64,000 nt of DNA from an uncultured bacterium (GTDB taxonomy: Bacteria > Patescibacteriota > Minisyncoccia > UBA6257 > 2-01-FULL-56-20), in contig CAVOJZ010000002.1 of NCBI GenBank assembly GCA_963696395.1, forward strand, positions 213,060 to 277,059, written 5' to 3'. The position numbers were made by a program, and so were the translations under genes. Position 1 is the first letter of the stretch. Every line of letters starts with the position of its first letter. Shown here in pieces: positions 35,778-61,326 of the stretch. Below the pieces are notes generated by a model. It was given only the letters and a program-made list of their open reading frames with translations. It had not been told where the DNA came from and ran no database searches.

Positions 35778-36317
35778 TCACGATCCCTTGAAAAACTTCT
35801 CCCGTTTTTCCTGCCTCCTTAACTCTTCATCTTCCCGTATCCATTGCAGAAATAGCTCGGGGTTCGTTTTAATGAGATTCTCGGTAAACTTGCCGTCTTT
35901 CAATAGACCAAACCGCTCCAACGAAGCGATGATGTTATCAGTCTGTTCTTCGCTCAGGTGATACGTCGGCACGCTCTCTTTCTTCCTTCGTTCCCATTCT
36001 TCACGGCCTTCCGGAGGGAGCGCTTCGACAGGAACTTTCGGCAGATAGCGCACCTCATTGTTGCTGAGAAAATACTTGATGGCACCGACATTGCCTTTTT
36101 TAGCCTCCCTCACAAGCGCTAACTCCGTCATTTCAATCCATTGCTTCCTTCCGTCGATCAAGGCAAGATCAACCGCCGTCTTGAAGTCAGGATCATTCTT
36201 TATCCATCGATAGACGGTGGCACGGCCGATACCAACCTTGTGACATGCCGCACTGATAGAAGGATTCTCGGACAACAACTGTATGAATTTCGATCGTTCG
36301 TCACTGTGTCTCGCCAT
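35778..36317 (-). CDS. terS: Phage terminase small subunit (P27-like, N-terminal HTH)
   Basis: ISAACHKVGIGRATVYRWIKNDPDF HTH and GNVGAIKYFLSNN motif typical of TerS. Confidence 0.7.
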   Translation of the reverse strand: MARHSDERSKFIQLLSENPSISAACHKVGIGRATVYRWIKNDPDFKTAVDLALIDGRKQWIEMTELALVREAKKGNVGAIKYFLSNNEVRYLPKVPVEALPPEGREEWERRKKESVPTYHLSEEQTDNIIASLERFGLLKDGKFTENLIKTNPELFLQWIREDEELRRQEKREKFFKGS

Positions 36318-37647
36318 GGATCTTGCGGCGCTTTTTGCCGGTTTTCAGTTCCCAGCGACGCATGATGATTTCGGCATACACAGAACTCTTCTCCATAACG
36401 TAGCAGCGTCGACCTAAGGCAATGGAACTCATTAATGTAGATCCACTGCCCCCGAACGGTTCCAGCACCAGCTGGCCTCGTTTCGTGAGGATCTTGATAT
36501 ACGGGATCAGGATTTCGAGCGGCTTGACCCCGAAGACCACAGCTTGCCCTGACGATTTCTCATCGGCGGCGTTATAGGTTATATGATCCGTCGGACAATA
36601 TTTCTTGCCCTTACCGTACGATTCCCAATGCGGAGATCCCGAAGTCGCAAAGAGCGCTGCTTCGTATTCGTTCTGCACGAGCTGATCCTCATCCTCAAGG
36701 TTGAGGCCGGAAAACTCTTCACTCGTTCCAACGACCGCGATATCATGCTTCGAGAACAGCTTGTACCTGCCAGCATAGCCCTGATTTCTATTAGGAAGAT
36801 GCCAAATTACCAGATTGCGCACCCTCCAAAACTTCTCAATCGTATCCCACACATTCCTCAAATTCTTCCAATTTTCATAGCAGAAAATTGAAAAATCTTT
36901 TGCTTGGACTTTGCTGACGTTGGTCATCCAAAGATCAGTGAAGTTTTCTGGCAGCTCTTCGGTCTCGAGATAGCGGCGATTCCGCTTCATTCCAAAGCCA
37001 ACCGTCGCGCCATCCTTCCGCTTGCCGCCGCCCAAGTATTGAAGTTGGTACGGCGGATCGGTCATGACCATATCGGCCTTCTCGCCGTCCATGAGCGTGA
37101 GCACGTCGGTCTCTACCGTACTGTCCCCCACCATTAATTTTGAGCCGTCGAGATCGTAGACATCGCCTTTCTTGGCTTCAATCGATTCGATGTTTAATTT
37201 ATCAAGCTCCTTCTCGAGGTCGAACATTTCGGGCGTCGGGTCTTCCTCGAAAATCGTATCGAGCTCTTCGCTGTCGAAGCCGATGTCAGCAAGGAGATCC
37301 TCACTGAACTCCGCTAAGGCATCCCAGTCAAAAATTCCGGTATTTTTATTTAAGCGAATAATGAGCTCGGCCTCTTTATCTGCTGGCACGTTCACGCGAA
37401 CAATCGGAACGGTATCAACCTGCATTTCTGCCAAAGCAACGGCGCGGAAATTTCCGCCCACGATCACGCCCTCACGCCCGGGGGCGCTGTTTACAATAAG
37501 CGGGTCTACTACGCCATACCGCTTGATCGACTCTTTAAGCTGCTCCGTTGCCTCTTTCGTCCAGATGCGTGGATTCCGCTCTGGGTGCCGCAATGAGGAC
37601 AAGGCAACGTACTCGATCCTCAGTTGCGGTTTATTGTTTTCACTCAT
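36301..37647 (-). CDS. ParB-like nuclease domain fused to an N6A/N4C DNA methyltransferase (orphan, phage-type)
   Basis: N-terminal ParB/Sulfiredoxin block, DPPY motif IV (VMTDPPYQ), C-terminal FGGSGST motif I; start at MSENNKPQLRIEYV. Confidence 0.75.
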   Translation of the reverse strand: MSENNKPQLRIEYVALSSLRHPERNPRIWTKEATEQLKESIKRYGVVDPLIVNSAPGREGVIVGGNFRAVALAEMQVDTVPIVRVNVPADKEAELIIRLNKNTGIFDWDALAEFSEDLLADIGFDSEELDTIFEEDPTPEMFDLEKELDKLNIESIEAKKGDVYDLDGSKLMVGDSTVETDVLTLMDGEKADMVMTDPPYQLQYLGGGKRKDGATVGFGMKRNRRYLETEELPENFTDLWMTNVSKVQAKDFSIFCYENWKNLRNVWDTIEKFWRVRNLVIWHLPNRNQGYAGRYKLFSKHDIAVVGTSEEFSGLNLEDEDQLVQNEYEAALFATSGSPHWESYGKGKKYCPTDHITYNAADEKSSGQAVVFGVKPLEILIPYIKILTKRGQLVLEPFGGSGSTLMSSIALGRRCYVMEKSSVYAEIIMRRWELKTGKKRRKIHGETQ

Positions 37648-37991
37648 GGTGAAAATTATTAAGTTTCGGGGGCGTTTTCGACGATAACAAAAACGAGTCC
37701 GAGACAAATCTGAAACACCCCTCTTTTATGAAAGAAGTGTCTCGGACTTATCTCGGACTCGAGTCTCAGGGTTGGATACCTGAGGCTTACCGAACGGCGT
37801 GAGCCATGCAACGGACTTGGTGCTTGCCTTCAAGCACTGCTGGACAGACCAATCTCCACTGGTCTGCAACCGCCCGCTTAAATAACAAACAGCTAGGAGA
37901 TATTTCGATATTAGCAAATGGCTCCGGCGAGGGTCAAGGGATTGTGTGGATAACTTATGTATATTGTGTATTAAGCTACCCCTATTGGCTA

Positions 37992-38031
37992 TTGCAATTC
38001 CAAAAATATGAGGTATAATGGACCTCATATG
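37992..38031 (+). promoter_or_regulatory. Sigma70-like promoter TTGCAA-16-TATAAT with inverted repeat TGAGGT-ATAATGG-ACCTCA overlapping the -10, directly before the LexA-like start
   Basis: Seen in sequence; predicted TSS within 1-3 nt of the ATG at 38029 (near-leaderless). Confidence 0.45.
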
Positions 38032-38709
38032 ATAAACCGTCGCACCATCCTTACCCAGAAGCAAAAGGAAACGCTCGATTTTATTGATAAGTTCATCACT
38101 AAAACGGGGTCTGCGCCTACCATGAACGAGCTACGCACTGGCTTAGGGTTGAGTTCCCTGCGGAGCGTGTCTCAACGATTGGAGGCACTTGAGCGGAAAG
38201 GGTTCATAAAGCGAGATCGCTTTCGGCACAGGGGCATCAGCTTACTCCCCGAATATATCGACACCACTCCCTCTGGGACAATCCAAATACCGGTTATCGC
38301 TTCCGCGGGTGCCGATGCCATGCAGGTATACGCACAGGAGCAATATGACGAATACCTGACCATTGATAAGTCGATGATAAATCCCAAGAAAGAAATTGTT
38401 GCTATCCGGGCAATCGGATCGAGCATGGTGGATGCCAACATTCGGAGCGGCGATTACGTTCTGGTGGAAGTTGGAGGCAACGTTGAGAATTGCGACCGAG
38501 TTATAGCTATACTCGGCGACATGGCGGTAATCAAGAAAATTCAATTTACCGCGGATGCCGTCGTTCTTTATCCCGAAGCGAAAGGCGGATCGTATCAGCC
38601 GATTGTGATGCCGGACGACTCCAAGATCTTCGGCCGTGTTTTGCGAACCATCAGTATGAAGAATAATGATAACCAAGAAATCACGTACGACTATAAAATT
38701 TCCAACTAA
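38029..38709 (+). CDS. lexA: LexA-family repressor (wHTH plus S24 peptidase, Ser/Lys dyad)
   Basis: N-terminal LexA DNA-binding domain (LTQKQKETLDFIDKFITKTGSAPTMNEL), catalytic GSSM Ser and VIKK Lys; the track ORF starts at 38008. Confidence 0.75.
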   Translation: MINRRTILTQKQKETLDFIDKFITKTGSAPTMNELRTGLGLSSLRSVSQRLEALERKGFIKRDRFRHRGISLLPEYIDTTPSGTIQIPVIASAGADAMQVYAQEQYDEYLTIDKSMINPKKEIVAIRAIGSSMVDANIRSGDYVLVEVGGNVENCDRVIAILGDMAVIKKIQFTADAVVLYPEAKGGSYQPIVMPDDSKIFGRVLRTISMKNNDNQEITYDYKISN

Positions 38710-50543: not shown

Positions 50544-50645
50544 CTTTTTTTCTCCCGCATGCCAAATTGGCTATCTATGATATAGCAGACAAGGGGTTTC
50601 GATGTCTAGGCGAGCAAACCCGAAAATCCTCTCTCGTCGAAACTA

Positions 50646-50719
50646 CCGTGAACCGCATGGTGGGGTAACTACTTCCCCACCCCGAGAGCGGTTCGAACAT
50701 CGTCCACCCGCCGGAAAAT
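50646..50719 (+). repeat. Array repeat copy 0: upstream module CCGTGAACCGCATGGTGGGGTAACTACTTCCCCACC plus degenerate core GGTTCGAACATCGTCCACCCGCCGGAAAAT
   Basis: Upstream module recurs at 54048-54085; core related to the other copies. Confidence 0.6.
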
Positions 50720-50826
50720 CTAAGATCTAATAAAGAAAGCGGCTCCCTAGAGAGCCGCTTCAGTATTGCCAAGGAAAATAAATTAAATGGAAGGACTTTC
50801 GACAACCTCAGTCTTATGCGTAGTAA

Positions 50827-51168
50827 TCACTTCAGGACAGAGAGCTTCTCTTCGTATCCTTCGATAACAAAACCCTGTCCTCTCTCCCTCAGTTTTGCTG
50901 CAACTTCGTCGAGAGATTTCCTCATCGTTTCTTGACTCTGCTGTGCTGTTTCATATTGCTCCTTGATCATAGCCCGTATCTGATCGCTAGATTCCTTCAT
51001 GACTTCTTTTGCTCCGTCGGATGGCAAATTAAGGATGGTTTCCCACATCTTGGCTGTCTGATAATTTCTAGAGATTGCGGTCATTAACTCGGCGAAGCTT
51101 CCCAAAAGTTCGGCTATTTCTTTGGTGCTATCCACTTGCTCGGATCCGTTGATAGGCGGTCGTTCCAT
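50827..51168 (-). CDS. Hypothetical protein (phasin-like alpha-helical)
   Basis: 113 aa; TTGAAA-18-TAACAT promoter immediately after repeat copy 1. Confidence 0.4.
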   Translation of the reverse strand: MERPPINGSEQVDSTKEIAELLGSFAELMTAISRNYQTAKMWETILNLPSDGAKEVMKESSDQIRAMIKEQYETAQQSQETMRKSLDEVAAKLRERGQGFVIEGYEEKLSVLK

Positions 51169-51211
51169 AGGTAAATGTTAGCATCTTTGATTATTCGGTT
51201 TCAACCAACAA

Positions 51212-51298
51212 GTTCTAACGTCCTCCATGCGCCGGAGCTGACAGGTTTCATCTGATTTTATTGCGCTAGTTTTTGCTACCGGAGCGAGGATTCGAACC
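51212..51298 (+). repeat. Array repeat copy 1 (full): core GTTCTAACGTCCTCCATGCGCCGGAGCTGACAG plus extension CTAGTTTTTGCTACCGGAGCGAGGATTCGAACC
   Basis: Seen in sequence; ends GGTTCTAAC and TTCGAACC form imperfect terminal inverted repeats. Confidence 0.7.
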
Positions 51299-51425
51299 AA
51301 TCTCATCAGCGGAAAATGGCCAATTGCAACCTCTATGCGTGAGACCGCCGAGCACGCCGCCGATTTTGCGAAATGCCTGCGGCTGGTTCGCTAACGCTTT
51401 TCAATCTCAATCCGACAACCGCCCC

Positions 51426-51450
51426 GACCCTGCGTTATGGGTCTTTTTTA
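51426..51450 (+). terminator. Plus-strand intrinsic terminator closing an ORF-less unit downstream of repeat copy 1
   Basis: GACCC-TGCGTTAT-GGGTC followed by TTTTTTA. Confidence 0.5.
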
Positions 51451-51458
51451 TTTCAGCC

Positions 51459-51474
51459 AGGTTCTAACATCCTA
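51459..51474 (+). repeat. Array repeat copy 2 (truncated: AGGTTCTAACATCCT)
   Basis: Matches the first 15 nt of the core only. Confidence 0.4.
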
Positions 51475-51541
51475 TACTCACTGCATCACTTCAGCTTAGG
51501 CTACGTCTACAATATTATCGTCGTCAATCGTGGATATTTTA

Positions 51542-51910
51542 CTAAACGGAAGTCGTAGCATCATCCACTTTTCCATTGTCTCGCGTTGTGAGATAGGCTG
51601 TCGGAACAAGACCCAAAAGTCCTCCGCCAAAAAACGCAAGAATTCCGGAGAGAAGCACGAGCAGAATATTACTAAAAGTCCACGATTTTTTAGCGTTAAC
51701 GACGACAAGAGAAAATGTTATCACTAGGACAATTGCGGAAGTTTCCCCGATCCGGAATCCGGCATCATAGCTGGTTGTGCCCGTGGTCAGCGCGACCACC
51801 ACCGCAATCAAAAAAACAAGCGCTATCGTTGCAAGTAAATAGGCGAGATAAAATCCAAAAGCCTCTTTTCCGTTCCGTTTGTATGCAAGATTCGTCAGCT
51901 CTTTGAACAT
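51542..51910 (-). CDS. Hypothetical small membrane protein
   Basis: Three TM helices. Confidence 0.4.
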   Translation of the reverse strand: MFKELTNLAYKRNGKEAFGFYLAYLLATIALVFLIAVVVALTTGTTSYDAGFRIGETSAIVLVITFSLVVVNAKKSWTFSNILLVLLSGILAFFGGGLLGLVPTAYLTTRDNGKVDDATTSV

Positions 51911-52078
51911 GATCTTAGCTGTACTATAGCATATTATATTTTCACGCGACTCGTTTCCCAGCCCGACAACGCGTGATCTAATTCAAATTTGTAGTCATGG
52001 TCGAGTATATGGATCTCCATTGATCCTGATCGCAATTCAATGTATGATAGCTAATAATCGGAATCCCGACATATCGAC

Positions 52079-52735
52079 ATGCTTGCAAAACTATACCAAT
52101 ACGAATGGGTAAAGACTCTGAAGAATTGGCTCCGACCCCTGAAGCAGCGCCTGCTCGGGAAGGACGGAATTTATATCGTAATGGATAAGGTCGCTGAGCG
52201 CGCCGGAGGGAGAGAAAACGTCAAGCTCGTTTACGACCTTGGGGCTTTGGACGGAGAATATACGCTCCATTTTGCTGAATATTTCCCAAATGCCATTATC
52301 CACTGCTTTGAACCAAATCCTATCAATCTTCCGTTGGTTTACAAGCGGCAGGCAAAATATCCCAAGCGCATAATAGTCCACCCGGTCGCCTTGTGGAATA
52401 AAAAGGGTAGTACAACTTTTTACAGACAGCCGAGCGAAGGAATGGGCACTTTGATCCCAAGAGACAATGCCACCGATTCTTTTTTAGTAGAAACGAACAC
52501 GCTCGATAGCGAGTACACTGGCGGGACGATAGACCTTATCAAAATCGATGTGGAGGGTGTTGAGTGGGAAGTACTCCAGGGCGCGGAGAATACACTGAAA
52601 AATGCGAACGCCGTATTCATTGAAATAGATCCTATTTATAAGAACTTCAACGGGGATGACGCAAAAACCATTTCGTGCCTTAGAAGCCAGTTTCCGAAGG
52701 TTGAAAGGATAGGAGATTTATATTTTTCGCGCTAA
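52079..52735 (+). CDS. FkbM-family methyltransferase
   Basis: LVYDLGALDGEYTLHFAEYF, HCFEPNP and IKIDVEG blocks. Confidence 0.6.
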   Translation: MLAKLYQYEWVKTLKNWLRPLKQRLLGKDGIYIVMDKVAERAGGRENVKLVYDLGALDGEYTLHFAEYFPNAIIHCFEPNPINLPLVYKRQAKYPKRIIVHPVALWNKKGSTTFYRQPSEGMGTLIPRDNATDSFLVETNTLDSEYTGGTIDLIKIDVEGVEWEVLQGAENTLKNANAVFIEIDPIYKNFNGDDAKTISCLRSQFPKVERIGDLYFSR

Positions 52736-52848
52736 CGCATGTAAACCAATATGGACTAAATCGATGGTTGCGGACAATAATGTTTGCTGTATAACCATGA
52801 AATCACTAGATCTGGCAGATAGATTCTCCCCTTTTCCTTCTCAATTCT

Positions 52849-52876
52849 GGTTCTGACATCCTCCACTCGCCGGAGC
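52849..52876 (+). repeat. Array repeat copy 3 (GGTTCTGACATCCTCCACTCGCCGGAGC)
   Basis: Followed by TTGACA(52881)...TATATT(52902), SD AGGAGG and the ATG at 52932. Confidence 0.65.
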
Positions 52877-52931
52877 AAAATTGACAAACAATCGAATATT
52901 ATATATTCTTTTTCGAGCACTAGGAGGAATC

Positions 52932-53375
52932 ATGGATAGAAAAACGATTCTATCGGCCGAAACACGAAAAATTCAATCACGCCTGGACCGTTGGTCAAAA
53001 AAGAACCTCGACTTGCAACCAGGAGAACGTGTAGCAGTGAGTTTAGCAATCCATGGTGGATCAAGACAAGAAATCCTTGCTATGCTAAGTAAGGATTACT
53101 TCACAAAACAACGCTTCGAAAATGCTGGCGTCCCACTCCGCTACAATTGGATGCGGATCACCAACATTGCCTATACAGCTTCTGCTGGCTTCGAGGATCA
53201 ATCGAAAGGGATACCGATCCACGAGAGAACGAAACGTTGCATCCCTTTTTTGACGATCGGGAGCATCGTCGAAGCGGGGAAAGCAAAGCTCCTTGAAATC
53301 GAATACTTTGGCGAAAGAGGCCTGGAGGCAGTGGAACAGATTCTGAAGCACGACGGCATCGAATTGCCCGCGTGA
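52932..53375 (+). CDS. Hypothetical protein
   Basis: Start at MDRKTIL with a strong SD; reverse-oriented cassette gene with its own promoter. Confidence 0.45.
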   Translation: MDRKTILSAETRKIQSRLDRWSKKNLDLQPGERVAVSLAIHGGSRQEILAMLSKDYFTKQRFENAGVPLRYNWMRITNIAYTASAGFEDQSKGIPIHERTKRCIPFLTIGSIVEAGKAKLLEIEYFGERGLEAVEQILKHDGIELPA

Positions 53376-53415
53376 CTCGGGGGGGCTATAATGCTCCCCT
53401 TTTTTATTTCATATA

Positions 53416-53504
53416 GGTTTTAACGTCCTCCACGCGCCGGAGCTGATAGTTCTTCCTTTAATTTTATTGAGCTAGTTTTTACTACCGGCGAGAGGATTCG
53501 AACC
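53416..53504 (+). repeat. Array repeat copy 4 (full): GGTTTTAACGTCCTCCACGCGCCGGAGCTGATAG plus GCTAGTTTTTACTACCGGCGAGAGGATTCGAACC
   Basis: Directly after the upstream gene's terminator; followed by hairpin GGCATC...GATGCC. Confidence 0.7.
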
Positions 53505-54047
53505 GCCGAAATAAAACAGGCATCCTCCTCATCGGGAAGATGCCTTTGGCAATGCACAGGGTTGCGGTAATCGCGGAAAATTGACACGATCCATCACCTT
53601 GAAAATGCGATCGATTTCCTTGTAGTCAATTCGTCCGACGAGTAAGTAAAGAAGAATGTAGTAGTCGACTTCGTCGCGTGCGTACAAATCCTTGCGCTTT
53701 ACCCCAACGCCCACAAACCATCCATGGAGTCGGCACCGACACAAACGAAAACGAATTAACGGTTGACGCATGATTTCCTCCGGCACGTGCAGATATCCTA
53801 ATCAAAGTCTGTGTCCCCAATATAGCCGAACAATGCCAGCATAGCGAGGGCTGCAAAAACAATCACAACAATCTTTGGCACAACATCAGACACGGACGGC
53901 GACTGAACGAAATGGTGCGTTAAAACCCATTGAATCGGCACACATCCTCCTAAGTTTGGATCCTTACCTTACTTCCTTATACGCTGGTTTATTGTCCCTC
54001 GCAAGCAGGTTTGGTATCACTGTTCCCCAATCGTAAGTGCGTAAACT

Positions 54048-54171
54048 GCCGTGAACAGTGTGGTGGGGTAACTACTTCCCTACCGTTCTACAGGTCCTAA
54101 CGTCCTCCGCGCGCCGGAGCTGACGATTTTCACCCTGATTTTGTTGATCTAATTTCTGCTACCGGTGAGAG
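54048..54171 (+). repeat. Array repeat copy 5: upstream module (GTGAACAGTGTGGTGGGGTAACTACTTCCCTACC) plus core GGTCCTAACGTCCTCCGCGCGCCGGAGCTGACG plus degenerate extension
   Basis: Lies between the 54243 gene's minus-strand terminator (54205-54238) and upstream small ORFs. Confidence 0.65.
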
Positions 54172-54242
54172 TATCGTTATACCAGGACCGAAGGAAAAGG
54201 GTAAAAAAGCCCCGCCCAAAAGAAATCGGGCAGGGCTGATAG

Positions 54243-54989
54243 CTAACAATGTTTCACGGTTCCGTTAAGGCGCTTGAGGAAGCGCACTTTATCGCCGTTC
54301 GGCAATAGCGGAATGAGCTGGAAGTTGATCGCGCAATCGTCAAGAACTGTTTCTACGGTACGAGGGAGGGTGCGATGCGCCCTCGGAGGCAGCCAGTGCG
54401 GTATATCTTCTTTTGGTAGACCGAGATCCACAAGAGCTGTCCGTGTGTCTTTGGAGAGCAGATCAAGCGTTCGGCGATTGATGCGTATGGCATTTCGGAC
54501 ATTACTGCTATCGCGAGCATAGGCGCGGGTCCCATACTTTTTCCGCAAGAGATCGAGCAAATGTATGTCGATGAGGTAGGCCTTTGTCGTATTTTTTGCA
54601 AGAAATGCCCAAAGGGTCTCAAGTGATTTCCCACTCATCCGCTTGAGCAACCTCCGGCGCTCGGCGAAAGGCCCGTTCATGTGGTGCTCACAGTTCCGAT
54701 AGTTGAAGATCAAGATGAACGCATCGTCGTAAGGAAATCCCAGCTCCTCAAGCTGGGAGTCGAGCTGGCTTTCAAAGAGCTTGAGCTGATCGGTATTGCT
54801 CGCGCCCTTAACTTCGACGTAGGCCTGCAAATGGTCATCCTCCATGTCGAAGTGGGTTGTCGCCTTGCCATCCATCCACGTTTGTGGAGCGATGAGCGGT
54901 TCATGCAAAAGGTGTCGCGCCAGTCTATCGTACAAGTATGCGAGATAGAACAGGCGATCCTCGTCGGTATAGATCGATATCTTTTCCAC
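54243..54989 (-). CDS. Hypothetical protein
   Basis: 248 aa; terminator GCCCTGCCCGATTTCTTTTGGGCGGGGC plus T-run downstream. Confidence 0.4.
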   Translation of the reverse strand: MEKISIYTDEDRLFYLAYLYDRLARHLLHEPLIAPQTWMDGKATTHFDMEDDHLQAYVEVKGASNTDQLKLFESQLDSQLEELGFPYDDAFILIFNYRNCEHHMNGPFAERRRLLKRMSGKSLETLWAFLAKNTTKAYLIDIHLLDLLRKKYGTRAYARDSSNVRNAIRINRRTLDLLSKDTRTALVDLGLPKEDIPHWLPPRAHRTLPRTVETVLDDCAINFQLIPLLPNGDKVRFLKRLNGTVKHC

Positions 54990-55291
54990 GTTCCATCTCC
55001 TTCGTATTTATTTTTTCCGGCGTTGCTTCACAACGGGCCGAACAAGTACGACAACATTGCCGTTCTTCCATCGGGTTCTTGTTTCGCTGGTGAATCCTTC
55101 CTGCGTAAGTCGCTTACGCGCTTCTCGCGCGGTGTAGGGGCCGAACTTGTCTTGCGATTTCTCGACCACGATGTGATACTGCATGCCGCAAGCTCCTCCG
55201 GGGGCTATCTCATTTGTATCACGGAGGCATACCTGCGTCGAGGAGTAGCGTGTTAATAAAAAAACGCCGCAGGAGGTTGTCGTGCGGCGCA

Positions 55292-56326
55292 TTACGTGAA
55301 GATTGGGAAAAGCGATTTTTGTTGCGGGGTATCGCGTTCTTCGCGGAGGATGATGCGACCCCGGATATAGTATTCCGCAGATGGTACGCACCAACGGCAG
55401 GTGTTCCGGATGACACAAACGGCGCAGGTTTGTTCGTAAGTCCGTGTCTGCGCTAATGACCATCGGGCGACAGGCCACAGTTCAGTCTTGCGTCCGTGCC
55501 GTCCGCCAACCACGCTTTGATTACCCGGATGCTGGTTACACATGAGACCCGAATAGAGCCATACGGCTTCACAGAGAGTTACGGGATCAACGTTGTTCTC
55601 GACGCAGTAGCTCTGAAAAAGAGTTCTTACGGCGGCGAGGATCGGCTTCGTATAGAATCCATTGCCGTTGAACTCGCATGTATCGGCAATCACGATCTCG
55701 TGCGCAAATACCGTGCGAAGAACGTGAAAGTCGACCGGAATCGGGAAGTGCCATCGATCCACGATGCCCGCATCCATGTAGAAGTAGGTCAACATACTCA
55801 CCATCTTCTCCTGAAAGCTGCGGAACCCATTTCCCTTTTTATTCTGAATGCGGTCACATGCTTCTTCGTACGTCGAGATATTCGAAAAGATGGTACGGGG
55901 ATCGCCGTTCCACAAATCAGTGAGTTTCTTCAGGTTCTCCTTCCATATGCCGCCGATCTCGTCTGCATTGAACCCGAGGCCTACGCTCCTAAATGATGCG
56001 GAAAGGCCCTCGGCGGTAAGCGTTGTTTCCGATTCCGGCAGAAAGATCGCATTTTCTGCGTTGTAAAGCTCGGCGAGTTGCCGTATCGCCGTGTGGCTTT
56101 TGATACCACCGCGCATCCAATAACAGACAGCAAAGAGGAATAGCGCATGCTCTCGCGATCCCCATTCAATTAATTGCGGGATGTTCTCCCTTATCTGTGG
56201 CGGCGTGGCTTTCGATTGGTCGTACGGATACTCTTTGCGGAAATACGCATCGAGCAACCGCGAATAGATCGCTCCAGCTTTTACACGATCAATTTCCATC
56301 GACGCGTCCTTTCTTTCCAATTTCAA
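55292..56326 (-). CDS. Hypothetical protein with C-terminal Cys cluster (CAVCVIRNTCRWC), possible HhH-GPD/Fe-S glycosylase-like
   Basis: Cx2Cx6Cx2C cluster; terminator at 55236-55275 on the minus strand. Confidence 0.25.
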   Translation of the reverse strand: MKLERKDASMEIDRVKAGAIYSRLLDAYFRKEYPYDQSKATPPQIRENIPQLIEWGSREHALFLFAVCYWMRGGIKSHTAIRQLAELYNAENAIFLPESETTLTAEGLSASFRSVGLGFNADEIGGIWKENLKKLTDLWNGDPRTIFSNISTYEEACDRIQNKKGNGFRSFQEKMVSMLTYFYMDAGIVDRWHFPIPVDFHVLRTVFAHEIVIADTCEFNGNGFYTKPILAAVRTLFQSYCVENNVDPVTLCEAVWLYSGLMCNQHPGNQSVVGGRHGRKTELWPVARWSLAQTRTYEQTCAVCVIRNTCRWCVPSAEYYIRGRIILREERDTPQQKSLFPIFT

Positions 56327-56368
56327 AGAGTTGTCGTGCTGCCCACAGTGTATGACAAGCTATCCTGC

Positions 56369-56887
56369 ATGGCAAGAACAAACGGATACTGTGATAAACT
56401 AAAAGCAATGTCAAAGAAAAACTCTGTCTCCCCGCTCGTTTTCGATACCTATCTCGCTCTCATAAAAAACAGCGTCGGATCAAAAATGTTTCGCAACGCG
56501 TTTTTTCTGATCAACGGCAAAAAGCAAGATGTCTTGCGTGACGGCGATCTGTCATGTGCGGTTTACGTATCATCTATCTTGCGCCTTATGAATCTCATCC
56601 CTGAAACCCATACGACGGTGAAGGGTACGGTGGAGACCATGTGCCAGGCAGGGTGGAAGCCGATAAGGAAACCGAGAGCCGGGAGTATCCTCGTTTGGGA
56701 GGCAAAGCATTTCAAGAAGAGCGGCGAAAGCCATAGGCATATCGGCTTCTACATCGGCGATAGAAAAGCCGTGAGCAATAGCTCAAAGAAGCGCAGCCCT
56801 GCTATGCACCATTGGACATTCGGCGTGAAGAACGGCAAAACCAAGCGGACTATTGAGGCAATATACTGGAACGGAAAGTTAGACTAA
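56369..56887 (+). CDS. Hypothetical protein, possible papain-fold (NlpC/P60-like) hydrolase
   Basis: Conserved Cys (DLSCAVYV) and His (HIGFYIG) spaced as in papain-like folds; start uncertain (56369 or 56408). Confidence 0.3.
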   Translation: MARTNGYCDKLKAMSKKNSVSPLVFDTYLALIKNSVGSKMFRNAFFLINGKKQDVLRDGDLSCAVYVSSILRLMNLIPETHTTVKGTVETMCQAGWKPIRKPRAGSILVWEAKHFKKSGESHRHIGFYIGDRKAVSNSSKKRSPAMHHWTFGVKNGKTKRTIEAIYWNGKLD

Positions 56888-56900
56888 CTTATTTCAATCA

Positions 56901-56930
56901 GGTTCTAACTATCCCGCGCGCCGGAGCTGA
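56901..56930 (+). repeat. Array repeat copy 6 (GGTTCTAACTATCCCGCGCGCCGGAGCTGA)
   Basis: 18 nt upstream of the DUF1311 gene ATG. Confidence 0.65.
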
Positions 56931-56947
56931 TTTGCTAAACTGAAGAT

Positions 56948-57445
56948 ATGAAGATTGAGTGGAATAGGGTGACGTGGTACTCGAAACTTATTGCTATCGT
57001 TGTCTTTGGTATAACTTTTTTTATCGCCTTCAAACTTGGAACTATTGACGGTTCAGCTACGCAAACCATCATCGATTCCGCGATTTTTGCTTCGAGCACG
57101 CAAAATAATTCCGCTGCCGCAACGCCCGGATGCGCCAACGCCACAACGCAAATGGACATTAACGACTGCGAGTACCAGGCCTATATTGCCTCTGATCAGC
57201 AACTTGCCACTCTGTATCAATCGCTACTCTCCGCCATTGGTCCCGATCATCAAACGCAACAGGATTTTGTTTCCTCGGAGCAAAAATGGACGTCCTACCG
57301 AGACGCAGCGTGTCAGACAGAAGCAGATACAGAAAGCGGCGGCTCATTAGAACTTGCGACCCAAGATGCCTGCCTACAGGCTATCACCCAGCAACGAATT
57401 GATTATCTAAAATCGATATCAAATGAATTCGGGGTCGGTGTATAG
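56948..57445 (+). CDS. DUF1311 (LprI-like lysozyme-inhibitor family) secreted protein
   Basis: N-terminal TM/signal, Cys pairs, ...QKWTSYRDAACQ... family motif. Confidence 0.5.
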   Translation: MKIEWNRVTWYSKLIAIVVFGITFFIAFKLGTIDGSATQTIIDSAIFASSTQNNSAAATPGCANATTQMDINDCEYQAYIASDQQLATLYQSLLSAIGPDHQTQQDFVSSEQKWTSYRDAACQTEADTESGGSLELATQDACLQAITQQRIDYLKSISNEFGVGV

Positions 57446-57454
57446 GCTAGATAG

Positions 57455-57481
57455 GTTCGAACATCCTCCACGTGCCGGAGC
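57455..57481 (+). repeat. Array repeat copy 7 (GGTTCGAACATCCTCCACGTGCCGGAGC)
   Basis: Immediately beyond the minus-strand terminator 57484-57528. Confidence 0.65.
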
Positions 57482-57483
57482 AA

Positions 57484-57528
57484 ATAAATGAAAACGGCGG
57501 CCCGTATAAATATGAATTGGGTCGCCGT
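57484..57528 (-). terminator. Rho-independent terminator of the 57543 gene (same hairpin module as 48363-48407)
   Basis: ACGGCGACCC-loop-GGGCCGCCGT plus T-run on the minus strand. Confidence 0.6.
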
Positions 57529-57542
57529 CCTTAGTAATGGAA

Positions 57543-58145
57543 CTAGCAGGCTTTTCCATGAACAAGCTTGTGCGCGTCGCAGAGGCTTACCACGGGGAAT
57601 ATTTCTTTGCCCGAAACGCCGGGCACGAAGAGAGGGCACCACATCACCCGACATCCACGTTCGAGTTTTTTTAAATCATTGATTGTGCCCGTAACCTTTC
57701 CATTGGATTGATTATCTGAGAAAGTCATGATGTTTTGCGCTTTCGCGAAGACCATCTTGTCGCTTGGAGTACCCTTGGATTCGACGAGCTTCCTCGCGTG
57801 ATCAAAATCCCTTGCACAAACCACCGCGACGACCCCGTTGTGCGACCACTTGATGAGATGCGGCTTGCACGAGTCGATCCAGCGATCAATGTCGTGGAAC
57901 GTGCTACCAAAGGAACGGCTGCCGCCCAAAAGATACGCCGTGAGGAAGAAAGATCCTGCAAACGCACCGATAATCAAGAGTCCACCCCATGGCGCCATGT
58001 CTCTCGTCGGAATGTCGCCGAAAATGAGTTTAGCGATCTGATACGCGATGAATCCGCCCGTAAAGCCGGCACCGAACTCAATCGTGACGATAAAGAAAAA
58101 AGCTCCGAGCTTCAGAAAAAATCCAGCTAGTTTAATTTTTAACAT
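57543..58145 (-). CDS. Hypothetical membrane-anchored protein
   Basis: Two N-terminal TM helices, Cys-containing C-terminal domain. Confidence 0.4.
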   Translation of the reverse strand: MLKIKLAGFFLKLGAFFFIVTIEFGAGFTGGFIAYQIAKLIFGDIPTRDMAPWGGLLIIGAFAGSFFLTAYLLGGSRSFGSTFHDIDRWIDSCKPHLIKWSHNGVVAVVCARDFDHARKLVESKGTPSDKMVFAKAQNIMTFSDNQSNGKVTGTINDLKKLERGCRVMWCPLFVPGVSGKEIFPVVSLCDAHKLVHGKAC

Positions 58146-58303
58146 GACAAACCTCCAACCTGCCTCCGTTTTGTCCCCGTAGGGTGCCGTGAGGGCTTAT
58201 GGTTGATGCTGGATATATTATATCATTATTTAAGCGATACTGTCAATATCCCTCTTTCTCCTTGTTTTATAGGTCTTCGCGGTCATTTGGCTCCGTTAAA
58301 ATT

Positions 58304-58331
58304 CGTTCTAACATCCTCCACGCGCCGGAGC
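58304..58331 (+). repeat. Array repeat copy 8 (GTTCTAACATCCTCCACGCGCCGGAGC)
   Basis: Immediately beyond the minus-strand terminator 58332-58367. Confidence 0.65.
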
Positions 58332-58367
58332 AAAAAAATCGGACGTCACCATTTCTGGCGACGCCCG
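58332..58367 (-). terminator. Rho-independent terminator overlapping the last codons of the 58346 gene
   Basis: CGGGCGTCGCC-AGAAAT-GGTGACGTCCG plus TTTTTTT on the minus strand; paralogous to the hairpin at 59834-59872. Confidence 0.6.
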
Positions 58368-59044
58368 TGACTCATGAAATCAGTAAACCGAGCGAGAGAC
58401 TGCGTGCACAAGTCAACAGCTTTTGTATGATCCTCGACCGGAGAGACGCGCAAATGCTCAAAGGTGATATAAGTCATTTTGGAGTATGTGCCACCCTTCA
58501 CAGGATCAGGATCTATGCCAAGGCTTTTCGCCATTGCATAAGATGCTTCGCCCATGGTGCCTTCGTCCCCAAGGATCCCACAATTCATGCGTCCTTGATA
58601 AATGACCACCACTGGAGCGCCCAGCCAAACGCCGTGCTCTCTAAAATTCCAATGCTTGTCCGGAAATGGAGCAACGACGTAGGGAAGATGGGCTGCGTCC
58701 AGTGGCTTGCCATCGGAGTCGTGCAGTGTTGTGTCACTCGTAAAATCGGGGTCAGTGGTGCGGTTGCATTCATTGGTAACGACGCCGTCGCAATCGACCG
58801 TCATCCCGGCAGTCCACCAGATAACACCGTTCGATTCGCAGACAAAGGCAGTGGCGGGCTTGTCGTTTCCCGCTGGATATCCGCCGCCAACTTTGTTGTC
58901 GCAAGTGCCAAACAAGTCAAGGATGCGTTGAGGAGTTACCGTCATCCTTTCGACGGACGAACTTTTATGCTCTAACCATACAGTCAACATAACGGCAAGA
59001 AACGCACCGAATACCATAATCCGTTGCAAGGGGCGAACAACCAT
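58346..59044 (-). CDS. Secreted protein, possible GH75-like chitosanase domain
   Basis: Signal peptide; ...ESNGVIWWTAGMTVDCDG... block is reminiscent of GH75; tentative. Confidence 0.3.
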   Translation of the reverse strand: MVVRPLQRIMVFGAFLAVMLTVWLEHKSSSVERMTVTPQRILDLFGTCDNKVGGGYPAGNDKPATAFVCESNGVIWWTAGMTVDCDGVVTNECNRTTDPDFTSDTTLHDSDGKPLDAAHLPYVVAPFPDKHWNFREHGVWLGAPVVVIYQGRMNCGILGDEGTMGEASYAMAKSLGIDPDPVKGGTYSKMTYITFEHLRVSPVEDHTKAVDLCTQSLARFTDFMSHGRRQKW

Positions 59045-59133
59045 GGCCCAATCTCCTTTCTAGCTTTTTTACCGATCACTTCTTGAATGATAGCACGAGA
59101 ACTTCGATAGGTGTCCCACTTAGCAAGCGCCGG

Positions 59134-59189
59134 GGTTCTAATCTGACAAAAATGAGGGCGATTTTTGTTACCCGCGAGAGGATTCGGAC
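59134..59189 (+). repeat. Array repeat copy 11 (internally deleted core GGTTCTAATCTGACA plus extension GTTACCCGCGAGAGGATTCGGAC)
   Basis: Seen in sequence. Confidence 0.5.
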
Positions 59190-59324
59190 TGATTTAAAAC
59201 TGGCTCCTTAACAATTCAAAAATGCTGCAGCCGATGACCGCCGCGATGATGACGATGGTAAAATTTTGCATGGTAAAAATTTCTTTTAATGCCCTGGTGG
59301 GGCAATCACTCCCTGGTTTGAAAA

Positions 59325-59356
59325 GTCCTAACTTCCTCCACGCGCCGGAGCTGACA
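59325..59356 (+). repeat. Array repeat copy 9 (GTCCTAACTTCCTCCACGCGCCGGAGCTGACA)
   Basis: Seen in sequence. Confidence 0.65.
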
Positions 59357-59406
59357 AAAAAGCAGGAACCCCGTCACAGGATTCCCGCACCGCATCTTCT
59401 GTTTTG

Positions 59407-59739
59407 TTATGGCGCCAACACATGAAATTTGACCTCGGGATGCCACAATAATTTGTTGCCATCCATCGGAAACAATGAGATGCCATAATCACCGATTTTT
59501 ACGAACGGGACTACAAACACGATTGCATTGTCGCCCTGGGACACGATGGAAACTTTGTAATCGTTGTTTGCGTCAGAAATGTAGACGGCCTTCACACTCT
59601 TTATTCCCAGATCATTCCCGTGAAGCGTAGCTTGGCCTCCGGCCTTAACGTCACTCGGCGTCACGCTCACTGGTGTTTGGGCCCACACGAAGCCAGACGC
59701 GATGCAAACCAATGCAAGAGCTATCAAGGTCTTTTTCAT
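59407..59739 (-). CDS. Small secreted protein (signal peptide MKKTLIALALVCIASGFVWAQ)
   Basis: SD AAGGAGG; promoter TTGAAA-17-TATATC directly after repeat copy 10 on the minus strand. Confidence 0.5.
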   Translation of the reverse strand: MKKTLIALALVCIASGFVWAQTPVSVTPSDVKAGGQATLHGNDLGIKSVKAVYISDANNDYKVSIVSQGDNAIVFVVPFVKIGDYGISLFPMDGNKLLWHPEVKFHVLAP

Positions 59740-59792
59740 AGAAAGAACCTCCTTTTGTGAGATATATCATCTACGAGACAACTTTTCAATAG

Positions 59793-59813
59793 CCACAACC
59801 GGTTCTAACGTCC
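59793..59813 (+). repeat. Array repeat copy 10 (GGTTCTAACGTCCTCCATGC, 3' part diverged)
   Basis: Seen in sequence. Confidence 0.55.
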
Positions 59814-59833
59814 TCCATGCACGGAAGATTGAA

Positions 59834-59872
59834 TTTTCTCCTGAAAAATAAACGGACATCGCCATTTCTGGC
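59834..59872 (-). terminator. Rho-independent terminator downstream of the YdeI-like gene
   Basis: CGGACATTGCC-AGAAAT-GGCGATGTCCG plus T-run on the minus strand. Confidence 0.55.
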
Positions 59873-60015
59873 AATGTCCGCAAGATGTCTCAGGATCTTG
59901 GCGAACTCCTCCTTTTCAAAGCGTTTAGCATCTTCCGATGTTTTCCAAAAACTGATTGCGACGATAGTTCGTGGGATTTCGCCGGCTTGCTCGTTTTTTG
60001 GCAAAGGTGGCTTCG

Positions 60016-60336
60016 TCAACGTTTTTTGGAGGAAGACTTTCTGCTGAGTATATATTGTATAGAGGGACTTATTTTTTTATCCCGGCGGTGAATACATCCT
60101 ATCCAGCAACATGGGCGGCGCATCCCTTCTCTCAGTTCTGAACACACCCTTTTCACGTGCTCCGTTCTTGTTTTGGCCTGTTTGACGGAAATCGTCCAAC
60201 AAATCCATTCATTGCGCGCAAGCGGCGTAATATCCTCCCACTTTGCAAGCGCTTTTGCATCCGAAGCGAGCTCCTTCCGCAAATCCGCCGGGAGGCTATG
60301 CACGGTGCCGGATGAGATTTTTTCCTGTTTCATCAC
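60016..60336 (-). CDS. YdeI/OmpD-associated family protein
   Basis: ...LARNEWICWTISVKQAKTRTEHVKRV...RRPCCWIGCIHR C-terminal signature. Confidence 0.55.
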   Translation of the reverse strand: MMKQEKISSGTVHSLPADLRKELASDAKALAKWEDITPLARNEWICWTISVKQAKTRTEHVKRVCSELREGMRRPCCWIGCIHRRDKKISPSIQYILSRKSSSKKR

Positions 60337-60434
60337 ATTATTCTACCAATATTCCGAAAATTTCAAATCTCTGCCTGGTCCGTGAGCAAAAAAGATTCGT
60401 GGCGTCGGGGTAACCCGATCTTCCACGAACCTTT

Positions 60435-60558
60435 GGCTAATTCCTCCACCCCTCCGAGGACATGCCCATATGAGAATGAAGGCGATGAAATGCATTATAA
60501 AACTGTCCGGCAGCCGCCTGCACGATAAATCAAGTGGAATCGAGAGGATTCAAGCCCG
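60435..60558 (+). repeat. Array repeat copy 12 (degenerate core GGCTAATTCCTCCACCCCTCCGAGG and extension ATCGAGAGGATTCAAGCCC, wider spacing)
   Basis: Seen in sequence. Confidence 0.4.
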
Positions 60559-60628
60559 GAATTGACTCGCGGTCGATTTCCTGCTTTACTGCGCGAAGCA
60601 ATCCAAATAAAAGAATAAGGAGGGTTCA

Positions 60629-60925
60629 ATGAAGCATTTTTGGATGGCGATATTCAGAAACGACGGCAAGCTCGACTGTATGCTTTTCGATGAAGTATCA
60701 GAGGCAACAGTGAAGGAGCTCATTCAACGACAGTTCGAGGGCTGCGAGTTAGTTTCAATACAAGAAGTCCGGCCTCCCGAACGTAGAGGCGCAAATCCAG
60801 ACCAGTGGCAAACTGCGATGGAGCACCTTTACGGCCTTGGAAGCAATGAAGTCATGACTCCTTCCCCTTCGGATCTTTTCGAACAGATGTATCTCCTGGG
60901 TTACCTTCACGGAAGCAATTCGTGA
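60629..60925 (+). CDS. Hypothetical protein
   Basis: SD AAGGAGGG; 98 aa; terminator about 15 nt downstream. Confidence 0.45.
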   Translation: MKHFWMAIFRNDGKLDCMLFDEVSEATVKELIQRQFEGCELVSIQEVRPPERRGANPDQWQTAMEHLYGLGSNEVMTPSPSDLFEQMYLLGYLHGSNS

Positions 60926-61326
60926 TCGCACGACAATCCCCTCAACACCGCTTAGTAGGAAACGAAAGGCGGTTTTTTATTTGAACCGTCAAATTCCAAC
61001 TCTCCCTACTCGCTAAAACTGATAAAAAAGGTGTCGCCATTGCAAATTCTAAACACCGTGTTACCACCTTTTCAGTAGCAGCTGGGGGGGGCAAGACATC
61101 CCGAGCCCGAGGTGGGCCGCCACTACTAACCTTAGTAGACCGCCAGCCTCGCTTGGGTTGCAATCATTTTTCCCATTTTTTCATACCCCTCCTACACCCT
61201 GGACCCCCACAAATATCGTGGGGGTTTGCTTTTCTCGCGGAACACCCGGATGAAACAATAAACCAGCCGTTCTGGTAGACTAAGGGTAAGGTAAAGGCCG
61301 TTCACCAATCAGTTATTATTTCTATT

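Follow-up and report, generated by a model that had tools for sequence, protein, structure and literature searches.

What could place the same short repeat, always in one orientation, in the gaps of a run of small genes? In the 64-kb stretch of DNA analysed here (the window), a consensus search for the 28-nt core, which allowed ≤3 mismatches and took its chance expectation from shuffles, returned seven matches, every one on the plus strand, against 0.00 expected. An nhmmer profile added four weaker cores at 50690, 51460, 56901 and 59801, likewise all on the plus strand, bringing the profile copies to 11, and the twelfth, at 59134-59189, has an internal deletion in its core (GGTTCTAA/TCTGACA) but has retained a downstream module (module 2). 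The initial annotation, which had described at least 12 co-oriented copies flanked by genes on both strands, was indeed right on both counts, the latter as judged from the window ORFs. Its range of 50600-61250 holds only in part: the cores are confined to 50,690-59,827, none lies in 59.83-61.25 kb, and nhmmer detected no further core with E < 0.1 in the rest of the 64 kb or in 10 kb rightward (L001). The motif is clustered rather than evenly scattered, forming a single cluster in the window and one stretch in each of four contigs of 313-698 kb. We consider it likely that the repeats are element-side attachment half-sites (P half-sites) left behind by integrative elements with a gene for a large serine recombinase (LSR), whose insertion target in CPR/Patescibacteria is the tRNA-Asn 3′ end. 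The array has the following features (window coordinates).

50640..50716, plus strand: first P-type junction, upstream module and weak core GGTTCGAACATCGTCCACCCGCCGGAA (nhmmer E 4e-6); minus strand FRRVDDVRTALGVGK*, then a hairpin GGTGGGG..CCCCACC
50717..59800, both strands: 10-11 recombinase-less units of 0.19-2.8 kb each (ORFs and Pfam)
51211..51238, plus strand: P core (consensus search and nhmmer); minus strand ..VRILAPVAKTSAIKSDETCQLRRMEDVRT..
51239..51459, minus strand: recombinase-gene fossil, the last ~220 nt of the gene
51460..51484, plus strand: partial P core, GGTTCTAACATCCT then diverged sequence (nhmmer E 0.01)
52849..52876, plus strand: P core (consensus search and nhmmer)
53416..53505, plus strand: P core (53416-43) and module 2 recombinase-tail fossil (consensus search, repeat families)
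54043..54181, plus strand: upstream module, P core (54093-54120) and degenerate module 2 (consensus search, repeat families)
56901..56927, plus strand: weak P core with a 1-nt deletion (nhmmer E 7e-4 to 8e-7)
57454..57481, plus strand: P core (consensus search and nhmmer)
58304..58331, plus strand: P core (consensus search and nhmmer)
59134..59189, plus strand: internally deleted junction (core minus ~20 nt) and module 2 (repeat family)
59324..59351, plus strand: P core (consensus search and nhmmer)
59801..59827, plus strand: final P core, degenerate, at which the detectable island ends distally (nhmmer E 3e-5)

The overall picture is supported: small units, mostly with one gene each, are separated by a recombination-site repeat that keeps one orientation. 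The units carry small secreted or membrane proteins, an FkbM methyltransferase, LprI/DUF1311, a GH75-like protein and others (ORFs, Pfam), and the unit after the core at 52849..52876 opens with its own promoter, TTGACA-17-TATTCT at 52881-52909. The two accessory modules reported earlier were also recovered. Module 2 (..CTACCGG.GCGAGGATTCGAACC) follows the core at 51263-51298, 53476-53504 and 59162-59189 and, in degenerate form, at 54153-54181, and the upstream module precedes it at 50640-50689 and 54043-54092, with GGTGGGGTAAC identical in both. The terminal inverted repeats noted earlier are real as sequence, although they are not a transposon-like pair of ends; the inverted-repeat appearance arises because GTTCGAA is itself palindromic and recurs as a recombinase-tail codon motif (VRT/VRI).

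The origin of the core becomes apparent about 19 kb to the left. The initial annotation had found no tyrosine integrase or attI in the window; taken to mean that the window has no recombinase or attachment site, this was wrong, as both are present:

31277..31553, plus strand: tRNA-Asn(GTT), attB-side attachment site and island head (exon 1 31277-31310, exon 2 31515-31553)
31311-31514, plus strand: group I intron of tRNA-Asn, 204 nt (ARAGORN -i, intron at position 33)
31554..31584, plus strand: element-derived right-hand flank ACTCAGTAAAAGTATCGGACAGACCGAGAGG directly 3′ of the tRNA, resembling a fossil of the recombinase 3′ region
33280..34623, minus strand: LSR gene, 447 aa (Pfam Resolvase, Recombinase and Zn_ribbon_recom domains)
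35778..38709: mobile-element-type module beside the LSR gene, with an HTH protein, a ParB_N-DNA methylase fusion and a LexA/S24-like repressor (Pfam)

Standard ARAGORN and the Rfam tRNA model did not detect the tRNA-Asn gene at 31277..31553, because the 204-nt group I intron interrupts its anticodon loop. Its 3′ end, GGTTCGAGTCCTGGCCGCGGAGC, was located by a regular expression, and ARAGORN called the spliced exons tRNA-Asn(gtt); the Rfam Intron_gpI match (22.5 bits, E 0.002) is under the family gathering score. The core repeat represents a pseudo-3′ end of this tRNA. The flank ACTCAGTAAAAGTATCGGACAGACCGAGAGG is nearly identical to the sequence that follows tRNA-Asn and several cores in locus L013, and GGACAGACCGA corresponds to the SVCP codons in the tail of the L046 LSR; because its reading frame is interrupted, the segment is a fossil.

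The window LSR shares 41-43% identity with the LSRs of L027 and L099 over residues 8-360 and is distantly matched by the integrase structures of SPbeta and A118. Its top NCBIfam match is CcrB, at 126 bits against a family cut-off of 900; assignment as a Ccr protein was ruled out, since the NCBIfam Ccr scores are far under their cut-offs. The protein lacks ~45 aa of coiled coil and the last ~75 aa of the tail, and the gene is probably degenerate. An ABC-transporter pair (31584-33239) now separates it from tRNA-Asn, 1.7 kb away. That the LSR has lost its tail and part of its coiled coil and does not adjoin the tRNA are points against our reading.

The repeats are linked to the 3′ end of LSR genes as well as to tRNA-Asn. 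On the minus strand, 10 of the 11 window cores examined encode ..RRxEDVRT.. or a near variant (for example LRRVEDVRT), matching the LSR tail, and five segments of the window are LSR-gene fossils (31554-84, 51239-51459, 53444-53505, 54121-81 and 59162-89). The segment at 51.2-51.45 kb, earlier taken for an ORF-less cassette, is one of them: it contains the second and third GGTTCGAA-type motifs (51291 and ~51386), spaced as in intact LSR genes, and its reading frame stays open across module 2 and on into the core. Likewise, 54043..54181 reads as a fossil of ~46 recombinase C-terminal codons (QLRRAEDVRTCRTVGK* on the minus strand). Several units begin or end with fossils of the last 10-75 recombinase codons because the gene reads through the site.

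Relatives display the same arrangement in a more intact form. At least 120 metagenomic loci of CPR-type habitats contain the core, and in 16 of the 16 loci holding both, window included, the cores follow downstream of a tRNA-Asn 3′ end and share its orientation. An LSR is the most recurrent large protein near the cores; that it was found in only 8 of ~120 loci, many of which are short contigs, is a point against our reading. The LSR ORF runs antisense across tRNA-Asn by 28-42 nt in L027, L046 and L136, and it overlaps a core in L099, L124 and L030. The C-terminal 27-33 aa of LSRs match core junctions in six other loci (tblastn); for instance, a junction in L013 encodes ..IYIPDLQPVA* and the L099 LSR tail reads ..IYIPDLSPQA*. 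We infer that the LSR is the enzyme acting on these sites. Complete units in relatives have a median length of 1118 bp (n=35), with which the unit sizes in the window are compatible.

Comparison of close relatives, a check suggested in the initial annotation, showed unit-level differences that break exactly at the repeat. L042 and L089 share 94-95% identity across the tRNA and first unit as far as ..CCCGGAGC and are unrelated directly afterwards; L042 and L026 have flanks that are 94% identical and different first units. These strain breakpoints fall on the shared GGAGC, the only sequence common to the tRNA end and the cores within one genome. On the other side, the one other assembly of the organism, from the same sample, has an identical order, and no circular or empty-site form was seen among the loci and assemblies examined; both count against our reading.

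The site geometry is in part that of a serine recombinase. Conservation stops sharply at GGAGC, and to its right the information content is ~0 across 138 copies. GGTTC and GGAGC are spaced 23 nt apart in 115 of 116 cores, as against 18 nt in tRNA-Asn. In serine integrases, the motif bound by the zinc-ribbon domain lies at attP positions 16-24 and attB positions 11-19, a 5-bp shift (PMC3783163). For the left half-sites only, the 5-nt offset between our two spacings equals this known attP/attB shift, as read from the sequences. The motif geometry suggests that exchange occurs at the GG of GGAGC (tRNA positions 70-71). Against our reading, the pair of quasi-palindromic half-sites to which serine integrases usually bind is incomplete: no conserved second half-site was found right of GGAGC in the 138 copies, and no inverted GGTTCTAAC occurs at +16 to +24 in LSR-carrying junctions. 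Recognition may be largely one-sided, in which case the rebuilt tRNA site could accept further insertions.

We propose that an element would insert at the tRNA-Asn 3′ end, each insertion restoring the tRNA, and that the far end of the insert would carry the P half-site (aaACA-GGTTCTAAC-R-TC-S-TCCA-NNNN) joined at GGAGC to the former post-tRNA sequence. Repeated insertion at the tRNA would displace older units outward and give a co-oriented array regardless of the direction of the cargo genes. A point against this is that canonical serine integrases are not known to reuse attL; serial insertion at the tRNA would need relaxed specificity. The 28-kb island in the window starts with the intron-split tRNA-Asn (31.3 kb) and ends at the last core (59.8 kb). 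The first unit appears to be a decayed 19-kb element, beginning at the tRNA, that still has the LSR gene and whose right end would be the junction at 50640..50716; the 10-11 small recombinase-less units follow. Such units could travel as passengers when an upstream element excises via a downstream P junction. The window array looks sedentary because its LSR is truncated.

A more far-reaching version of this proposal is tentative. CPR bacteria may possess a serine-recombinase, integron-like platform for gene capture, in which tRNA-Asn is the fixed acceptor and ~1-kb units with one-sided P sites are mobilised individually or jointly in trans. If so, the C-terminal tail of the recombinase would differ when its element is free, beside the tRNA or behind another unit, and this rewriting could sense the state of the element; the three phased GGTTCGAA motifs in the last 270 nt of the gene would be extra binding sites for control of that state.

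The rival that survives best, a possible though not the favoured account, is that the units were never individually mobile, and that successive complete LSR elements lost their recombinase and most of their content by deletion. The LSR-gene fossils at five sites, the degeneracy of several cores and the truncation of the window LSR all suit such decay. It explains less well why >100 distinct units start cleanly right after GGAGC, with functional-looking promoters or terminators and without ragged recombinase remnants, why the P half-site retains close to 2 bits per position in lineages whose composition varies between AT-rich and 50% GC, and why the close relatives L042 and L089 share the same first unit and have different second units.

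It is improbable that the units are exchanged by homologous recombination following DNA uptake, anchored in the tRNA and the 28-33-nt cores, with no site-specific enzyme acting today. CPR bacteria are thought to depend on DNA uptake, many arrays have no recombinase nearby, and homologous recombination between repeats would likewise give breakpoints at repeats. However, anchors of ~30 nt are at the lower size limit, and the exact P sequence across phyla and the 5-nt offset fit a protein-binding site rather than a homology anchor.

Very little speaks for a REP/BIME-like structural repeat, a regulator-binding site or a promoter element, alternatives raised by the initial annotation, beyond the intergenic position of the cores, often beside terminators or promoters; the repeat occurs at one locus per genome, in a single cluster downstream of tRNA-Asn, its core is non-palindromic and keeps its orientation whatever the gene direction, and it marks strain breakpoints and is homologous to a coding 3′ end. 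Least probable of all is the sedentary chromosomal integron first suspected, or a cluster of attC sites, in which an IntI tyrosine recombinase would act on folded single-stranded attC sites: the array-like arrangement of small cassettes, the second arm that makes an 87-bp imperfect palindrome of 3-4 copies and the similarity of GTTAGAAC (minus strand) to the GTTRRRY core recall it, but the arm is present in only 3-4 of 12 copies, the right side is unconserved in 138 copies, single-strand DNA folds are no better than shuffles (z +0.4 to -1.5), the repeat derives from tRNA-Asn and the LSR-gene 3′ end, and no Phage_integrase domain was found in the scanned window ORFs, as the initial annotation had also stated, nor any tyrosine recombinase recurring among 150 related-locus ORFs.

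Among known systems, the closest precedents of the LSR elements proposed here appear to be the Dehalococcoides ssrA islands and the SCC elements, of which the present system would be a variant at tRNA-Asn. The ssrA-GIs (DsiB; McMurdie et al. 2011) encode a CcrB-like LSR on the reverse strand beside attL, whose 3′ end in every case extends into the target RNA gene or the neighbouring island (PMC3146451). They form tandem islands downstream of the target, with direct repeats of the target 3′ end between them and an element-specific conserved motif, not alignable with the target gene, just upstream of each repeat; about half lack an integration module and were proposed to be cis-mobilizable, and a ParB-like protein and a methylase accompany the recombinase (PMC3146451). 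Similarly, the reverse-strand LSR 3′ end runs into the target in L027, L046 and L136 (the window keeps the fossil at 31554-84 only), and a ParB_N-methylase fusion lies beside the window LSR. Tandem units between repeats of the target 3′ end, with recombinase-less units among them, are shared with both ssrA-GIs and SCC. The ssrA-GIs differ in their phylum, in their tmRNA target with T-loop insertion, as opposed to exchange at the acceptor-end GGAGC of tRNA-Asn, and in their cargo of whole gene clusters (rdhA and vcrABC operons, for example) and their spread over up to ~100 kb, as opposed to a median unit of ~1.1 kb. They also have a second small serine recombinase, DsiA, whereas no second Resolvase-domain protein (DsiA/CcrA type) was found among the LSR neighbours scanned.

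SCC/SCCmec (CcrAB, CcrC) and the Enterococcus cassette chromosome likewise use an LSR that inserts at the 3′ end of a housekeeping gene, and SCC forms composite tandem arrays with short integration-site repeats in between and ccr-less pseudo-SCC units. Unlike the system described here, SCC targets rlmH, its elements are far larger and its recombinase gene does not span the site. In Prochlorococcus tycheposons and tRNA islands, successive tRNA integrations push older elements outward, leaving partial tRNAs between elements and scattered degenerate remnants in streamlined host genomes (bioRxiv 10.1101/2020.12.28.424599). Those partial tRNAs are true ones, in contrast to the conserved pseudo-tRNA half-site seen here; moreover, tyrosine recombinases are present in 910/937 elements, and arrays of ~1-kb single-gene units are not described in that account (bioRxiv 10.1101/2020.12.28.424599).

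The likeness to integrons is a functional analogy only: a fixed acceptor serves small, promoter-poor or self-promoted cassettes that each end in a recombination site, and by this analogy the newest cassette is probably next to the acceptor, but neither defining feature of integrons, the tyrosine recombinase and the folded single-stranded attC, was found in the scanned ORFs and the repeat copies here. As in SSV-type archaeal elements, the recombinase ORF crosses its own attachment site and integration rewrites the gene. The SSV-type integrases are tyrosine recombinases whose gene spans attP and is split into two large parts, whereas only the last 20-25 LSR codons are exchanged here.

The co-oriented repeat reported in the initial annotation proved to be real. 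A search with a 28-nt consensus (the core) at up to 3 mismatches gave seven matches in the window, all on the plus strand, where shuffled sequences give an expectation of 0.00. A profile made from these seven matches recovered four weaker copies, and a twelfth copy is internally deleted:

50690, plus strand: weaker core
51460, plus strand: weaker core
56901, plus strand: weaker core
59801, plus strand: weaker core
59134-59189: twelfth copy, about 20 nt of the core lost, module 2 kept

Module 2 and the upstream module, two extra conserved stretches flanking some cores, were both located at the positions first assigned to them. As originally described, the genes between the copies lie on both strands. 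Many encode small proteins that match no Pfam family; others encode an FkbM methyltransferase, LprI/DUF1311 and a GH75-like protein. The range proposed for the array, 50600-61250, holds copies up to 59.83 kb, but the remaining 59.83-61.25 kb is free of them. The profile search found no credible further copy in the rest of the 64 kb or in the adjoining 10 kb past the right end (read from L001). In exact-protein look-ups for strain variants, contigs of ERR11563597, the sample of the window itself, were the sole source of matches to the array proteins, and the order was the same. The cassette proteins of the window had no homologues in the fetched arrays except for a 55-aa membrane protein (61327-61494), which matches positions 7164-7256 of L013, a locus from a related genome. 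The protein is conserved, leader (ggtaaggtaaaggccgttcac) included, at window 61327-61494 and L013 7099-7263. Its gene lies within the array in L013 but 1.5 kb past the last detectable core in the window, suggesting that older decayed units may reach about 61.5 kb. The stretch at 61030-61300 is non-coding and G+C-rich, with long hairpins and no Rfam match; its RNA fold was not significant (z of -1.7 on the plus strand and -0.6).

We scanned a genome collection with one genome per species. Twelve of the 14 matches were lone chance matches in unrelated phyla, and L013 alone was informative. This locus, from a member of Minisyncoccia within the candidate phyla radiation (CPR), carries several co-oriented cores, and its array begins at a tRNA-Asn(GTT) gene whose 3' end, GGTTCGAGTCCTGGCGCCGGAGC, resembles the core. 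At least 120 metagenomic loci from groundwater and sediment samples also carry the core. Among the matches listed, the copies of one locus were always co-oriented, with up to eight in 5.9 kb (L052), and four contigs of 313-698 kb each held one core stretch only. In all 16 loci that hold both a tRNA-Asn 3' end and cores, the window included, the tRNA was found upstream, on the same strand as the cores.

Default ARAGORN reported only a tRNA-Ser in the window. With the regex used for the tRNA 3' ends of the other loci we found a tRNA-Asn, and its spliced sequence was called tRNA-Asn(gtt). ARAGORN and the Rfam tRNA model had overlooked this gene because a group I intron interrupts its anticodon loop. 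It follows that the array forms the distal portion of an island whose start lies 19 kb to the left:

31,277-31,553: tRNA-Asn gene
31311-31514: group I intron in its anticodon loop, 204 nt
33,280-34,623: large serine recombinase (LSR) gene
38000-44000: stretch inside the presumed 19-kb first unit, G+C down to 0.46-0.48 against about 0.51 elsewhere; genes include Hypoth_Ymh, ASCH, DUF6879, NUDIX, EEP and HAD

The G+C dip fits a foreign origin of that stretch. The intron recurs in two metagenomic relatives, L042 (about 4595-4845, about 250 nt) and L026 (reverse complement about 4475-4998, about 520 nt), the latter containing an ORF with an HNH-like Cys/His pattern, and it is absent in L089, L113 and L013; its presence thus varies among relatives.

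When every ORF of 150 aa or longer in the loci was assigned to a family by clustering, the most recurrent family was an LSR with Resolvase, Recombinase and zinc-ribbon domains. The LSR gene is antisense to tRNA-Asn in three loci (L027, L046 and L136) and overlaps it by 28-42 nt, so that the gene ends in codons complementary to the T-arm and acceptor (..LLRREDSNLQPSP-stop, ..LLRGQGSNL-stop). In three further loci (L099, L124 and L030) the LSR gene overlaps a core, not the tRNA (..MLRRLDDVRTIV.., ..LLRGLDDVRT..). By tblastn, the C-terminal 27-33 residues of the LSR match the core junctions of six more loci, and the minus strand reads ..RRxEDVRT.. or a close variant in 10 of the 11 window cores examined. 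Module 2 is a same-frame stretch about 25 codons upstream, and the upstream module comprises the tail ORF's end (..VGK-stop) and the hairpin behind it. One junction in L013 encodes ..IYIPDLQPVA-stop and matches the L099 tail, ..IYIPDLSPQA-stop. What had been described as an ORF-less cassette, at 51.24-51.46 kb, is a fossil, the last ~220 nt of an LSR-type gene.

The window LSR shares 41-43% identity with its L027 and L099 counterparts and is without about 45 coiled-coil residues and without its last ~75. An ABC-transporter pair lies between its gene and the tRNA-Asn, and its neighbours are an HTH protein, a ParB-methylase fusion and a LexA-like repressor. As a separate observation, three copies of GGTTC[GT]AA lie opposite the last 270 nt of the LSR gene, on its antisense strand (L027, L030, L046, L099 and L124), against a background of 0.18 per kb. 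The copies are spaced by about 88 and 100 nt, the first being the core or the tRNA T-loop; L046 has two copies only, its T-loop not matching the pattern. The window counterparts of the three copies lie at 51211, 51291 and about 51386. The GGTTC[GT]AA copies could be extra binding sites, stacked old attachment scars made coding, or a peptide repeat (FEP/VRT).

In a comparison of 138 non-identical copies, drawn from many genomes, the conserved stretch reads aaACA-GGTTCTAAC-R-TC-S-TCCA-NNNN-SCGGAGC. Conservation drops to zero right after GGAGC, and the core is therefore without a second arm; neither a conserved right half-site nor the motif in inverted orientation turned up when looked for. The core and the tRNA T-loop have the 9-mer GGTTCNAAN in common. 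In the tRNA its start precedes GGAGC by 18 nt (positions 52 to 70); in 115 of 116 cores it does so by 23 nt. In serine integrases the zinc-ribbon-domain motif occupies positions 16-24 of the attP half-site and, 5 bp nearer the centre, positions 11-19 of attB (Rutherford et al. 2013, PMC3783163). Taking GG, the first two bases of GGAGC, as the central dinucleotide would place the motif at 16-24 in the core and at 11-19 in the tRNA. We infer that the cores are probably P-type half-sites and the tRNA end a B-type half-site. Within a genome (L018, L025, L026 and L131), GGAGC is the only sequence common to the tRNA end and the cores, in agreement with a putative strand exchange at or beside it.

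Related loci differ from one another by whole units. L042 and L089 are 94-95% identical across the tRNA 3' exon, the 345-bp first unit and the core up to ..CCCGGAGC, but unrelated from the first base after it, a clean case of a whole-unit difference that begins right after the core. The flanks of L042 and L026 are 94% identical (MgsA, tRNA-Gln, dCTP deaminase, tRNA-Asn), but their first units differ, which we count as unit replacement. A clean one-unit insertion was rejected for this pair, as the resumed similarity is only a recurrent terminator-plus-promoter module. In another relative, L113, a GIY-YIG unit occupies the same place (reverse complement 3800-4178, directly behind tRNA-Asn; nuclease call by eye). 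Instead of a P core it has CCTGCCCGCGGAGCC as its boundary, a true duplication of 15 nt of the tRNA end, and a second kind of element therefore uses this spot. L105 carries two true tRNA 3' ends, 113 nt apart.

The 35 complete units of the fetched loci have a median length of 1118 bp (range 97-4705 bp), and many units have their own promoter or hairpin terminator at the start. One recurrent start, directly after GGAGC, is promoter-like (TAAACATTGACC-N17-TATGTTAT); another of the few recurrent types is a hairpin terminator followed by TGTTCGAAC.TGTGGTATAAT. Such starts were seen, for example, in L029, L017, L052, L089, L095 and L061, and at 4883-4960 of L042, and they look like portable expression modules for cassettes. 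LSR-carrying units are about 7 kb long with cargo such as Mrr, DUF4145 and reverse transcriptase; AbiEii, Fic and DNA methylases are likewise present in core-bearing loci. A 14.8-kb viral-classed contig with a terminase-like gene (L016, identical to L091; IMG/VR UViG_3300009529_003397) ends in a P core at 14696-14722, so such an array may contain a prophage or phage-like unit, or such a unit may share the site.

We propose that the P/P' site of an element would recombine with the tRNA end to give tRNA/P'-element-P/old downstream sequence, slashes marking the junctions. Because the sequence behind the tRNA is not conserved, the enzyme would have to lean mainly on the left half-sites. With such reliance the rebuilt tRNA site would be open to the next insertion, and every P/x junction would be a possible excision partner. 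Arrays would grow at the tRNA end, recombinase-less units would ride along, and integration would exchange the last 20-25 codons of the recombinase. The mechanism has weak points: there is no recognisable second half-site, no circular forms were seen, the window's own recombinase looks inactive, and we know of no reuse of attL by canonical serine integrases, which bears on the proposed repeated insertion. It is also possible that the array is purely a "graveyard", but this model fits poorly with the clean unit starts and with the strong conservation of the P half-site.

Apart from serine recombination at the tRNA end, the integron reading of the initial annotation has to be considered. A cassette array bounded by recombination sites is right in spirit, but the mechanism is wrong: the repeat has no second arm, and neither an attC-like fold nor a tyrosine recombinase was found. 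In single-strand DNA folding the 87-bp form folds no better than shuffled sequence on either strand. No tyrosine recombinase was present in the scanned window ORFs, and the families that recur among 150 ORFs of related loci include none. Rfam does not account for the repeat, at gathering thresholds in the whole window or at E-value thresholds in the region, and a T-arm plus acceptor fold was rejected on reading of the repeat sequence.

CPR bacteria (Patescibacteria) have tiny genomes, and to our knowledge little is known of how they gain and lose accessory genes. At least 120 environmental loci belong to the present type, and they point to a concrete, testable route, with a single hot spot behind tRNA-Asn, a single recombinase family and a searchable 28-nt signature. 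The signature also reveals intron-split tRNA-Asn genes overlooked by standard tRNA finders. In addition, the locus type supplies a ready candidate site pair for a new serine integrase whose target is universal and conserved. This may serve genome engineering. The locus type also warns that arrays resembling integrons can come from another recombinase class.

We found no description of the system in the searchable literature on CPR with tRNA-Asn, serine recombinase or cassettes. Taken together, the array probably belongs to a kind already known, tandem islands at a tRNA-like gene that a serine recombinase drives. Of known systems, the Dehalococcoides genomic islands specific to ssrA come closest (PMC3146451). 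There, a reverse-strand CcrB-like serine recombinase always runs with its 3' end into ssrA or the neighbouring island, tandem islands have ssrA 3'-end repeats between them, a conserved element-specific motif lies immediately upstream of every repeat, and some islands without an integration module are proposed to be cis-mobilizable (PMC3146451). SCC elements and tycheposons are further relatives in logic, and the LSRs described here have only distant kinship to CcrB, XisF and the SPbeta and A118 integrases. In contrast to these precedents, the present system targets tRNA-Asn, with exchange probably at the acceptor end, belongs to CPR hosts, has very small and often single-gene units, and displays a legible pair of attP and attB half-sites.
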